From: Aulosira sp. ZfuVER01
Lineage (GTDB): Bacteria; Cyanobacteriota; Cyanobacteriia; Cyanobacteriales; Nostocaceae
Assembly (NCBI GenBank): GCA_034530615.2
Contig: JAVRCV020000063.1
Location: 8,976-72,975, forward strand
Length of the DNA stretch: 64,000 nt
Direction of reading: 5' to 3'
Positions 30,001 through 33,000 of this stretch are shown here, piece after piece (the first letter of the stretch is position 1; the number at the start of each line of letters is the position of its first letter). The position numbers are program-made.

Positions 30001-33000
30001 AGTGTTGAGTAATTTTATCTTTTTAGCTAAAGCAGCTTGATATATAGCTTCGTACCTTTCTAACTCAGGAATATATCCTACCCAAATTCCAGCAGTTTCT
30101 TTGGGATAGTTAGGAACATGCCATAGAGCATTTTCTACTGTGCCGCAGCGTTGAAAATCTCTTGGTATATGGTAAACTTTAAAACCTAATATTTGAGCAG
30201 TCTCAGTCATTAATTTATTTTCATTAGCGCTGGCTGATGCTGCTATTTGCTCGGTAGATTCGCTTAAAACAATCATTGATTTACAGCGCTTTTCATTGAC
30301 ATTAAGTACACACTTTGAACACTAAATTATCGGAAGGGCACAGCACTGCTGTGCCCCTACGTGATTTATCCTTTTACACACAAGACTTGCTTGAGTGTTG
30401 CTACAACTTCAACCAAATCTGCTTGATTTGCCATTACTTCATCTATCGGTTTGTAAGCACCGGGAATTTCATCTAATACCCCCTCATCCTTACGGCATTC
30501 TACGCCTTTAGTTTGCTCTATTAAATCATCGAGAGTGTAGACATTTTTTGCCTTGTTTCTAGACAGTAGCCTGCCTGCACCATGACTGCAAGAGCAAAAA
30601 CTGTGAGCATTACCTTTACCTTTAACAATGAAAGATTTAGCTCCCATGGAACCGGGAATTATGCCATAGTCTTCAGTTCGGGCACGGACTGCTCCCTTAC
30701 GAGTAACATACACATCTTCGTCAAAATGTACTTCTTTTTCGGCATAATTGTGATGACAATTCACTTCTAATAAAGGTTTAGTAGGCTTTCCTCCTGCTAA
30801 ATGTTTTTCGATAATACGCTTAAATCGCGCCATCATCACATCACGGTTGAAACTTGCGTAATCTTGTGCCCATTGTAAATCGTTCCAGTATGCTTCAAAT
30901 TCTGGTGTACCAGCGACAAAATGAGCTAAATCTGGATCGGGTAATTTATTACCTGCCATCTTTGCTAATTCTTTAGCTGTATTAATATGGCATTGCGCTA
31001 AATTATTGCCGATGTTGCGCGAACCGGAATGCAGCATCAACCAAACTTGGTTCTCTGTATCGAGGCAAACCTCAATAAAATGGTTCAATTTGTTACTGAT
31101 TGCTTGCTTTGCTTATTTAGTCTCCACAGTCTTAATTCAATACTGTTTCGACTTCTGCCTAGCACTTTCATCAATAAATTTTATAGATAAAAGTTGCAAT
31201 CGATCAAGTCATTTCTGCTTGATTCTATACCTTCCTATTTGGTATAGTTCGGAGCACACCTTCATCCTAAATAAATTAGGATGCTCAAGTCCCTCTGCTC
31301 TCTACGGGGCGTTTTACCGCTTCCCTCGGTATTAGCGAGTAAATCTTTTAAGATACTGCTGCAAAAACTGTCTGAACTCATCATCTGTTCTTTTACCTTT
31401 TAATTGGTTACAGTTTTGACAAGTTACAGATATGTTGGTTATGTGGTGTAGTTCGTTTCTACTTAAAAGTGTTTTGTGGTCAATACGACTTGTTCTTTAT
31501 TTAATTGGATTTGGCAATAAAAGCAACACGGATTTCTTTCATATAATTCTTTTAAATCCTTTGCTTTTAACGGTTCTGATAATTTGATTATTTGTCCTGC
31601 CAAACCTTTTCGTCTTGAACCACTACTATTTAATGATTTTGATCTTATATTCCAATATTGAGGTTGGTTTTTTTTCGCTCCATTTCTGAATTGCTCGGTC
31701 AGTTTGAACTTTTTTGCTACACCACATTTAGAGCATATCTTTGTACCGATTTTATATACTTCTTATTTTACAGTTTCTTTGTTATTAGATTACCGAAAAT
31801 TAAGACCGAAGTATATAACAGATTTACTATTTCTCAGCCTTCACCGATTTGGACGAGTTTTGATTACTGCATTACTACAGTAAGGGGCAATCTTTTACCC
31901 CCTCCCAGAGAACCCATTTGTTTCATTGCTTTACTTTGCAGATTTTGCACACCACGATGCAAATCTTTAAAGCTACTCCAGCGTTGCCAATTACTAACAG
32001 ATTTTTCAACCTCTTTATTTTCGTTGAATCCAGTAGGAATTGCTGCTTCAATATCCAAGCGGATTTTCTTTAGTTTGCCTTCTAGTTGTTCACCAGTAAA
32101 TGGCATTTTAATCGCACACATTCCGCAACCCACATCTACACCGACAGCAGCAGGTATAATGGCTTCTTTTGTCGCTAATACAGAACCAACTAAAGCACCT
32201 TTACCTAAATGGACATCTGGCATCAATGCTACGTGTTTAAATACAAATGGCAATGATGCTACATTCTTGGCCATTTTGGTTTCTTCTGGCCCCAAAGCAT
32301 GATTAGCCCAAGATAAAACTGGTGCTGGTGTAGTAATTTCTAACTTTTCGTAGGGCATAATTTCCTCTATTTAAGATTGTTCCAGTGTAATTTGAAATTA
32401 GGTGGATTCTTACGCATATACATCATGATTAATGGTATTAATTTACATCTTATACCATTTTAGATTTTAGATTTTGCGGAAAGTTGCGTGGGCGGCTCTG
32501 CCGACTTGAGCAAATTTTCCAAATCGGATTCCTATATATAATTCAATACAGTTTAAGTTAGAGATTTTGTGAAAAGGCGACCATCCAAAACTAGGCTAAG
32601 TTGCCTGTTGGCAAGAACGCTAGTTCCTAGGATATAAGGAGCAACTGGGATTGCTTCCCCTAGAGGATGGATCGTAGAGGATTGTTTGCCGATGATGCAA
32701 TCTACTTCTAAAGCACATAGTTTGTCTAAATAACGAAATACTAATAACGGCTTATCCTGCTTGAAAGCATTTAGTGTATCTGTACTGTAGGTGTTAACTG
32801 GGGTAGGAAAGTGGTTAGGAGAAATCAGCACATCAGTCAGTAAGTGGATAGGGACGAGCATTTCCGTTGTTGGGAAGCCACTGGTGCCAGAAGACTGCAA
32901 AAATAACATGCGTCCCGCTTGAGTTTGGAGAATTTGTTCGGACTGGGATAAACAAATTTGCTCTACGGAATCGGCAACAAATGCATAGAGTCTGGAGTTA

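Follow-up and report, generated by a model that had tools for sequence, protein, structure and literature searches.

A probable group I intron with remnants of two homing-endonuclease genes between the GGG and NHF codons of rtcB in Aulosira sp. ZfuVER01

When an RNA ligase gene, rtcB, is interrupted as it is in Aulosira sp. ZfuVER01, gene callers make of it two ORFs or a pseudogene, which raises the question of whether the gene is broken or is made whole again at the RNA level. The window that we analysed is a stretch of 64,000 nucleotides of contig JAVRCV020000063.1, to which all positions refer. On its minus strand rtcB is interrupted by an 811-nt insert that falls precisely at the boundary of the GGG and NHF codons (Table 1), which confirms the split as described in a genome-wide survey's note. 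Exon 1 ends with ATG GGT TCT CTG GGA GGG GGT (MGSLGGG), the insert begins with AAAAGATTGCCCC and ends with AAATTG, and exon 2 opens with AAC CAT TTT (NHFIEV). The two exons align with positions 2–115 and 154–426 respectively of the Pfam RtcB profile (PF01139; cut-off 27 bits), and when joined they belong to the RtcB RNA ligase family and are colinear with intron-less orthologues. In congeneric rtcB genes that lack the intron the site reads MKQMGSLGGGNHFIEVCL without interruption, so that exact removal of the insert would yield a colinear rtcB. In a search of solved structures, exon 2 aligned from residue 11–12 onward, with the NHF motif outside the alignment.

Table 1. Positions in the window of the rtcB exons, the intervening intron and its structural elements.
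Feature	Position	Strand	Remarks
rtcB exon 1	31897..32358	minus	154 codons, end SLGGG; Pfam RtcB 103.6 bits
rtcB exon 2	30366..31085	minus	start NHFIEV; 239 codons plus stop; Pfam RtcB 300.1 bits
Group I intron	31086..31896	minus	811 nt
Internal guide GCCCC (P1 3' strand)	31884..31888	minus	pairs with exon 31897–31901; splice-site U-G
P2 hairpin	31864..31883	minus	8 bp, GUAA loop; 6/8 pairs with compensatory changes
P3 5' strand CUCGUCC	31851..31857	minus	3' strand 31284–31292, UU bulge
P4 5' strand UCGGUG	31842..31847	minus	3' strand 31326–31331
P5-loop insert, 495 nt	31337..31831	minus	closing 8-bp stem, 31821–31828 with 31338–31345
P6 hairpin GGG(AA)GCG / CGCCCC	31306..31325	minus	C-G to U-A in 9/54
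P7 5' strand G(A)GAGC	31297..31302	minus	pairs with GCUCC 31251–31255; pseudoknot with P3; C-G to U-A in 8/54
P8 hairpin	31263..31283	minus	drawn structure and MFE fold
P9 hairpin CUAUACC / GGUAUAG	31225..31247	minus	drawn structure and MFE fold
P9a hairpin, GAAA tetraloop	31204..31222	minus	3/7 pairs compensatory
P9b long-range helix	31098..31201	minus	GAUUGC 31196–31201 with GCAAUC 31098–31103; encloses 92-nt LAGLIDADG-region remnant
Last 28 codons of deleted LAGLIDADG ORF (MKVLGRSRNSIELRLWRLNKQSKQSVTN)	31086..31171	minus	TGA stop spans 3' splice site

We read the insert as a group I intron, once brought by homing between these codons of rtcB and still able to splice, and put the probability of this reading at about 0.85. 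The guide sequence lies at intron nt 9–13, where it pairs with exon GGGGU to form P1. The survey's note had suggested this pairing, and the U-G pair at the splice site is present in 54 of 54 distinct rows of our alignment, with a change from G-C to G-U at one P1 pair in four of them. The structure that we drew by hand (P1–P9, P9a and P9b; alignment A1) has 59 pairs in 10 helices, and 99.7% of its cells are paired among 54 distinct relatives. Thirteen of the 59 pairs, the P7 pseudoknot included, have changes on both sides, a count reached in 0 of 500 shuffles, pairing and covariation being counted on the sequences that had also served to derive the structure; these compensatory changes are located in P2, P4, P6, P7, P9 and P9a. 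Controls in which the structure was slid along the sequences were 36–42% paired and had 0–3 such pairs. For P9b, pairing is complete in 55 of the 58 distinct copies, and compensatory variants of this helix are present.

The order of P3 to P9 is canonical, with a P3/P7 pseudoknot and a P4–P6 stack, and alignment to the full RF00028 model gives the same P3–P9. P7 has a bulged A followed by a G-C pair and is invariant except for one compensatory pair; the bulged A and the G-C pair may be the guanosine-binding site, by analogy with the P7 helices of Tetrahymena and Azoarcus. The intron ends in G, as the note had stated, and so do all 84 copies whose 3' boundary lies within the locus. The 3' ends read AAATTG, or the variants ACTG, ATCTG and AAAATTG, directly before AAY CAY TTY. 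At P10, 2–4 bp at most can form between the first 3' exon bases and those just 5' of the guide, and covariation was not seen there. The survey's assignment of the insert to group I is thus borne out by a P1–P9 structure with covariation that extends to the P3/P7 pseudoknot. The smallest form of this ribozyme (P1–P9, P9a and P9b) is about 235 nt long and might lend itself to work on ribozymes or RNA circularisation.

Detection by Rfam is another matter. With RF00028 (Intron_gpI) the window copy gave no match at E≤10, nor did it in a whole-genome scan, and a 44.6-kb batch of 14 loci gave no match at E≤1. ORF-less relatives, scanned in narrow windows, scored 31.5 bits (L004) and 29.3 bits (L072), and the full model aligns to the 235-nt form with its elements in the correct order (29.3 bits, E 6.3e-6). 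Neither the window copy nor any relative scored reaches the gathering score of 50 bits, so that the earlier observation of a score below the cut-off is reproduced in kind. The cut-off thus passes over the rtcB intron lineage, and relatives in the ribonucleotide reductase gene nrdJ, discussed below, are likewise missed. The lack of an Rfam match at cut-off is what would be expected if the insert were another mobile element, such as an insertion sequence, a MITE, a group II intron or an intein, but we find this hardly conceivable. Neither a transposase nor terminal inverted repeats were seen, a 1.2-kb Rfam scan at E≤10 gave no domain-5 match as a group II intron would, the insert is out of frame and runs into a stop after 10 codons, unlike an intein, and group I is consistent with both the alignment to the full RF00028 model and the covariation. 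The exon joining in RNA of a relative, described next, contradicts it as well.

In splicing, the pre-mRNA would fold so that the exon GGGGU pairs with the guide, and free guanosine held in P7 would attack on the 3' side of the splice-site U. The G that ends the intron would then occupy the guanosine site and the exons would be ligated, restoring the GGGNHF codons and allowing full-length RtcB to be made. These steps are those of the standard group I pathway, and RNA alone would be the catalyst. Exon joining is seen in a relative. In Chlorogloeopsis fritschii RNA libraries from two studies, a 60-nt contig joins the exons of the rtcB locus (L077 1270|1663) exactly without the 392-nt intron, and the junction corresponds to the predicted splice sites. 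The depth of this contig is 44.1 in run X6 and 55.8 in run X10, and that of the adjoining intron-containing contig is 51.3 and 82.7 respectively. The other two of the four runs, X1 and X2, yielded nothing at the locus, an outcome ascribed to a filter that speaks neither way. Exact excision and exon ligation in RNA are therefore evident for a homologous copy that carries no P5-loop insert and is 94% identical to the window copy (200 of 213 core bases). The window copy itself is probably spliced as well. The joined contig could, in a formal sense, also derive from an intron-less DNA allele in the C. fritschii cultures. The intron-containing contigs would fit incomplete splicing in standard culture, although they could equally represent excised intron.

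These data also bear on the idea that the two ORFs yield separate polypeptides that assemble as a split RtcB, with the insert a mere spacer. The ORF of exon 2 does have a TTG start, made by the last three bases of the intron, but the break falls within the conserved GGGNHF motif, the supposed spacer has a conserved, covarying ribozyme fold, and exons are joined in the RNA contigs of a relative. Moreover, the frame of exon 1 meets a stop 10 codons into the intron (TAA, 31864–31866, in the P2 3' strand). We consider a split protein very improbable.

A different concern is that the insert, although of group I descent, is splicing-dead in the window copy, for instance if the 495-nt P5-loop insert misfolds the core, with rtcB a pseudogene. 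Loss of a split rtcB might be tolerated because the genome contains a second, distant rtcB-like gene (G000:C36, 39% identity, 498-aa open frame). P5-loop inserts longer than 80 nt occur in only 2 of 58 distinct copies, that of the window being the longest, and the copy with joined exons in RNA lacks one. An unconstrained MFE fold of the window copy (817 nt) fully recovers P1, P2, P3, P5a, P6, P8, P9, P9a and P9b but not P4/P5, which might also be held against it. However, all 59 core pairs of the window copy are standard, and it has 0 differences at 165 columns conserved at ≥95%. The 8-bp stem that closes the P5-loop insert also appears in the MFE fold, and in a related nrdJ intron the same position of the loop accommodates an intact ORF. 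Each exon has an open frame of full length, and exon 2 is 93–96% identical to intron-less orthologues of the genus. We therefore regard a splicing-dead copy as unlikely, and favour an intron that can still be spliced out.

The intron is built in three layers, namely the ribozyme of about 235 nt, the P5-loop insert with a dead HNH gene and the 92-nt LAGLIDADG leftover within P9b. The survey had reported a decayed HNH ORF, and we find one in the P5-loop insert, with a homologous stretch at about 31338–31744. It matches HNH profiles of PHROG (1.8e-9), and of Pfam just below cut-off (HNH_5, 26.4 versus 27.5; HNH, 20.0 versus 21.4), and is 39% identical to the intact 165-aa HNH ORF of a related intron. 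The frame is shifted and lies in several pieces without an ATG, so that neither a curated Pfam score nor an intact frame is found, and the window HNH gene is a relic rather than a working endonuclease. Of the LAGLIDADG gene the window copy retains 28 codons, without the open frame and two motifs of that family. In 17 of 58 distinct copies the LAGLIDADG frame is still open (at least 250 aa), and LAGLIDADG_3 scores 35.6 bits in relative L016 against a cut-off of 22.5. As both of its endonuclease genes are dead, the window copy would no longer be able to home, and its persistence in rtcB would be explained if it splices. The endonuclease genes sit in peripheral loops and are found among the copies in all stages of decay. 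The set of introns hence offers a natural series of the homing-endonuclease life cycle (intact, frameshifted, stub and clean loss) in two loops of one ribozyme.

Retention of the intron could in principle also have a regulatory side, in that ribosomes passing from exon 1 over the guide and P2 as far as the in-frame TAA would disturb P1 and P2 and so gate RtcB by translation. We think such gating doubtful. In such a scheme splicing would be poor in growing cells and better when translation is slowed or blocked. Slowed or blocked translation would match the setting in which Anabaena de-represses rtcB, going by passages of PMC10272220, which place this gene in the TrcR regulon, and of PMC8421152 on the translational stress response and rtcB. 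The depths of the C. fritschii contigs with and without the intron (51 versus 44, and 83 versus 56) would fit gating if they reflect incomplete splicing.

The same intron is present at the same site of rtcB in 39 of 200 genomes of the family, in keeping with the note's report of the insert in relatives, and in 57 named species records from several cyanobacterial orders. The note had it absent from the two same-genus genomes of its sample, but the genus does contain it, as it interrupts rtcB in 3 of 14 others (4 of 15 with the source genome); rtcB is uninterrupted in 11, encoding 406–440 aa. The copies are between 235 and 1067 nt long. All 87 loci have the intron start directly after GGGGGT, and in 84 the intron ends directly before NHF, the other three being cut off by the end of the locus. 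Every intron-bearing allele has GGGGGT at the end of exon 1, as against 0 of 10 intron-less alleles of the genus.

The rtcB intron is widespread. For protein-coding genes on bacterial chromosomes, a passage of PMC2853384 terms group I introns "extremely rare", and a list in PMC3984707 comprises flagellin, recA, nrdE and cyanobacterial ribonucleotide reductase genes. A report of an rtcB intron was not found in our searches of full-text literature. With rtcB as host, an enzyme that joins RNA in repair would depend on a ribozyme's joining of its own RNA. As to the novelty claimed in the note, a group I intron in rtcB that falls under the Rfam cut-off stands, whereas an isolated family does not, as the intron is kin to described cyanobacterial ribonucleotide reductase introns.

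The Nostoc punctiforme PCC 73102 intron in the class II ribonucleotide reductase gene (RIR/nrdJ; Meng, Zhang and Liu 2007, J Bacteriol 189:2150, as cited by PMC12702839, PMC2853384 and PMC3984707) resembles that of rtcB in that its host is a filamentous cyanobacterium and its site a conserved active-site motif of a protein-coding gene on the chromosome. We found nrdJ introns at LNPCG|E in loci L094, L095, L099, L100 and L116–L124, which may correspond to the N. punctiforme intron. They share with the rtcB intron the P3–P5 segment, the J6/7-P7 and J8/7-P7 motifs and the 3' end AACAAA(U)UG, and score 31–70 bits with R1, a model derived from the rtcB introns. One of them has its intact 165-aa HNH ORF, homologous to the window remnant, in the same P5 loop. 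The nrdJ introns differ in host gene and target site, lack P2 and have extra hairpins between P7 and P3, whereas the rtcB type has P2, P9a with its GAAA loop, P9b and a LAGLIDADG gene in the 3' domain. As the window intron lies in rtcB and has P2, it falls outside the nrdJ (RIR) type (NPCG|E site, no P2), and it is a relative of the nrdJ intron rather than the same intron. Matches of 27 nt found by BLAST in a reductase-like gene (L096–L098) were set aside as chance.

Introns of group I interrupt protein-coding genes of phages as well, accompanied by HNH or other homing endonucleases, according to the part of the review PMC3984707 that deals with them. All 20 of the IMG/VR contigs with the shared P4–P5 motif match model R1, and one (L133, 143 bits) has the rtcB-type architecture, with P2, P9a and P9b, inside a putative tail gene. 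L133 and the rtcB intron share an in-frame stop shortly past the 5' splice site, a trait that the review also describes. The phage introns differ in that the rtcB intron has a cellular chromosome and an RNA-repair gene as its host. No rtcB or nrdJ exons were found in the 20 viral loci, for which tblastn gave no output and the flanks were read directly.

The textbook cyanobacterial group I intron is that of tRNA-Leu(UAA), of the Anabaena type. It belongs to the same ribozyme class as the rtcB intron, but Rfam does catch it, its host is a tRNA gene and it carries no ORF. The one RF00028 match over the cut-off in the genome (81 bits, G000:C34:33377-33627) is presumably this intron, and model R1 gave no match to it.

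Inteins, likewise selfish elements, also occupy a catalytic motif in rtcB. A table of Novikova et al. 2016 (PMC4760082) gives 27 bacterial RtcB inteins, Cyanobacteria included. At locus L025 both elements occur together, exon 1 of the intron-bearing rtcB containing an in-frame intein at GVDIG|CGM. Removal of an intein takes place in the protein, that of the intron in the RNA.

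The rtcB gene of Aulosira sp. ZfuVER01 is interrupted by 811 nt lying exactly between the GGG and NHF codons of its GGGNHF motif, as the genome-wide survey's note had claimed; the exon ends agree with this, as do the two halves of the Pfam RtcB profile, of which positions 2-115 are matched by exon 1 and 154-426 by exon 2. Because same-genus genes without the intron carry MKQMGSLGGGNHFIEVCL uninterrupted, and because the profile is covered by both exons, exact removal of the insert restores a colinear rtcB. The insert is a bona fide group I intron whose two homing-endonuclease genes are both dead. 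We consider it highly probable (about 0.85) that it still splices, so that at the RNA level rtcB is a functional gene. The gene is flanked by ORFs of 293 aa downstream and 733 aa upstream on the same strand. Two further rtcB-like sequences lie elsewhere in this genome: a distant gene with 39% identity and an open frame of 498 aa, and a fragment of 134 aa.

Coordinates and helices of the rtcB intron and related features (plain positions are those of the window; G000, genome of the window organism; L numbers, loci)
Feature	Location	Strand	Details
rtcB exon 1	31897-32358	minus	end ...CTG GGA GGG GGT (SLGGG)
rtcB intron	31086-31896	minus	811 nt; 5' start AAAAGATTGCCCC, 3' end AAATTG
rtcB exon 2	30366-31085	minus	start AAC CAT TTT (NHF)
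Downstream ORF	29395-30276	minus	
Upstream ORF	32553-34754	minus	
P1			exon GGGGU + guide GCCCC; U-G at splice site
P2			8 bp, GUAA loop
P3			CUCGUCC + GGAC(UU)GAG
P4			UCGGUG + UACCGA
P5			short helix
P6			GGG(AA)GCG + CGCCCC
P7			G(A)GAGC + GCUCC; pseudoknot with P3
P8 and P9			both drawn in fold
P9a			hairpin, GAAA loop
P9b			long-range helix GAUUGC/GCAAUC; returns intron 3' end to core
rtcB-like gene	G000:C36:6793-7473 (L092)		
rtcB-like fragment	G000:C50:47391-47708 (L093)		
RF00028 match	G000:C34:33377-33627 (L088)		
RF00028 match	G000:C46:75512-75681 (L089)		
RF00028 match	G000:C64:48172-48527 (L090)		
nrdJ introns	L094, L095, L100, L116-L124		between LNPCG and E
nrdJ intron	L099:1320-2109	minus	between LNPCG and E
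Group II domain-5 match	L094:1915-1991	minus	
rtcB-type intron	L133:1152-1388 (= L145)		
Intein in rtcB exon 1	L025:1961-2904	minus	

The fold of the intron was drawn by hand from relatives lacking an ORF and then counted on an alignment of rtcB introns (A1; 58 sequences, 54 distinct rows). Across the distinct rows the 59 drawn pairs are 99.7% paired and 13 of them show changes on both sides (six in P2, three in P9a and one each in P4, P6, P7 and P9), figures that are biased in favour of the fold as it was derived from the very sequences used for counting. None of 500 shuffles came as high, and when the partners were slid out of register, pairing fell to 36-42% and both-side-changed pairs to 0-3. 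Despite this derivation, other explanations hardly account for the replacement of C-G by U-A seen in 9 of 54 rows in P6 and in 8 of 54 in the P7 pseudoknot. All P9b pairs are kept in 55 of the 58 distinct copies, and compensatory variants are present. The earlier reading of a group I intron with a U-G pair in a P1 formed by the guide GCCCC is upheld by this pairing. The main rival explanation is that the window copy itself no longer splices, which we regard as unlikely; in this copy all 59 pairs are standard and no change is found at the 165 columns conserved at 95% or more. When the window copy (817 nt) is folded without constraints, the minimum free energy structure contains P1, P2, P3, the closing stem of the P5-loop insert, P6, P8, P9, P9a and P9b, but not P4/P5; P7, being a pseudoknot, cannot show up in such a fold.

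The 58 distinct copies range in length from 235 to 1067 nt. Between the strands of P9b a full-length region of about 818 nt is present in 21 copies, remnants in 25 and almost nothing in 12. In 17 of the 21 full-length copies this region holds an open LAGLIDADG frame with two motifs, 250 aa or longer (Pfam LAGLIDADG_3, 35.6 bits), whose TGA stop spans the 3' splice site; the window copy retains 92 nt of this region, including the last 28 codons. The P5 loop has no insert in 46 copies, a stub in 10 and more than 80 nt in two, the longest being the 495 nt of the window copy. The decayed HNH gene reported by the survey is indeed found here (PHROG HNH, 1.8e-9; Pfam slightly below cut-off), as several frame pieces with no ATG, 39% identical to the intact 165-aa HNH ORF that L099, a related intron in nrdJ, carries in its P5 loop. 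Insertion has also occurred at a third site of the ribozyme: the P8 loop of the L079 rtcB intron contains 135 extra nt with repeats of the CAACAACCAA type.

RF00028 gave no match on the window copy, either searched locally or in the whole-genome scan, nor on 14 loci searched together. When the full model was aligned on narrow windows, ORF-less relatives reached 31.5 bits (L004, 317-nt form) and 29.3 bits (L072, 235-nt form), the latter alignment being consistent with the hand-drawn P3-P9. As both scores are below the gathering score of 50, the intron stands outside formal Rfam membership, in keeping with the sub-threshold score noted earlier. RF00028 has three other matches in this genome, of which one, L088, passes the cut-off with 81 bits; the remaining two are weak, at 23.6 and 18.1 bits.

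Public sequencing runs were searched with the rtcB locus of Chlorogloeopsis fritschii PCC 6912 (L077), whose 392-nt intron has a core identical to that of the window copy at 200 of 213 positions. The L077 stretch is contained in 18 runs, 14 of them recorded as RNA, from six studies. Of four runs compared with the locus, X1 and X2 gave nothing owing to a filter. In the other two, RNA runs from two studies (X6 and X10), the exon contigs stop at positions 1270 and 1663 of L077; a 452-nt contig passes through the intron (depth 51.3 in X6, 82.7 in X10), and a 60-nt contig joins 1270 to 1663, skipping exactly 392 nt with no differing letters (depth 44.1 and 55.8). This contig is not derivable from intron-carrying genomic DNA; an intron-less DNA allele in the cultures is a formal but improbable alternative source. 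Splicing of the L077 intron does not need an intron-encoded maturase, since this copy has no intact ORF.

Searching 200 other genomes of the family by BLAST with the intron matched 44, of which 39 were strong multi-segment matches and five short or unrelated. An exact 24-nt core pattern occurs in 57 species records of the genome collection, mostly Nostocales; the rest include Microseira, Floridaenema, Symplocastrum, Allocoleopsis, Elainella, Kastovskya, Coleofasciculus, Phormidium and records of Chroococcales type. The intron starts directly after ...SLGGG/GGGGGT in 87 of 87 loci, the window's included, and ends directly before NHF in 84, the other three being cut by the locus end. Of 15 genomes of the genus, the window organism's among them, 4 have an interrupted rtcB and 11 an unbroken one of 406-440 aa; that the survey met no intron in its two same-genus genomes reflects which genomes it sampled. 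All intron-bearing alleles have GGGGGT at the end of exon 1, versus 0 of 10 intron-less genus alleles, which use GGA GGT, GGA GGA, GGC GGT or GGA GGG; as the genomes compared are kin, the contrast does not amount to a statistical test. Both selection for pairing in P1 and co-conversion together with the intron are consistent with this pattern. One locus titled as a Candidatus Gracilibacteria MAG (L063) has a cyanobacterial-type rtcB with a 1041-nt intron and looks like a binning contaminant. The L025 rtcB has an in-frame intein in exon 1 (CFAGETLV...VFVHN, between GVDIG and CGM) and so holds intein and group I intron in one gene; exon-1 tblastn matches are split likewise in L052 and L063, which possibly carry an intein as well. 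Cyanobacterial RtcB inteins are already on record (PMC4760082).

Short BLAST matches revealed related introns in nrdJ (class II ribonucleotide reductase). These share the P3-P5 segment, P7 motifs and 3' end with the rtcB intron but differ from it in having no P2 and in bearing additional hairpins between P7 and P3; for L094, L095 and L100 no RF00028 match was reported at E<=0.1. A covariance model of the rtcB-intron P3-P9 core (R1) scored nrdJ copies at 31-65 bits, the split window copy at 118 and the other rtcB copies in that search at 113-178. In a sample of 151 genomes drawn from across the phylum, R1 found matches in 12, four in rtcB and nine at the nrdJ site, with both in one genome; in the window organism's genome the rtcB copy is the only match. 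The shared P4-P5 motif is also present in 20 IMG/VR contigs, all with an R1 match. One of 89 kb (L133) has a 237-nt rtcB-type intron (143 bits) with P2, P9a and P9b, splitting a putative tail gene, an ORF that matches a PHROG tail protein weakly (E 0.0066); when viral sequences were scanned again with a one-base relaxation of the rtcB-type core pattern, this contig alone came up. Three separate R1 matches in each of three 2.4-kb IMG/VR loci (L136, L137 and L141) suggest several related introns clustered closely. Given its kinship with the nrdJ introns and IMG/VR contigs, the rtcB intron does not stand as an isolated family but belongs, as one branch, to a lineage shared by phages and cyanobacteria. 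No published intron in rtcB was found among the matches listed by full-text literature searches, and "rtcB" does not occur in two reviews, one from 2014 on group I introns of bacteria and one from 2025 on splicing in cyanobacteria; the nearest counterpart described is the intron in the class II RNR gene of N. punctiforme (Meng et al. 2007). The L094 nrdJ carries both intron classes, as a group II domain-5 match (RF00029, 58.3 bits; RF04357, 65.9 bits) lies upstream of its group I intron.
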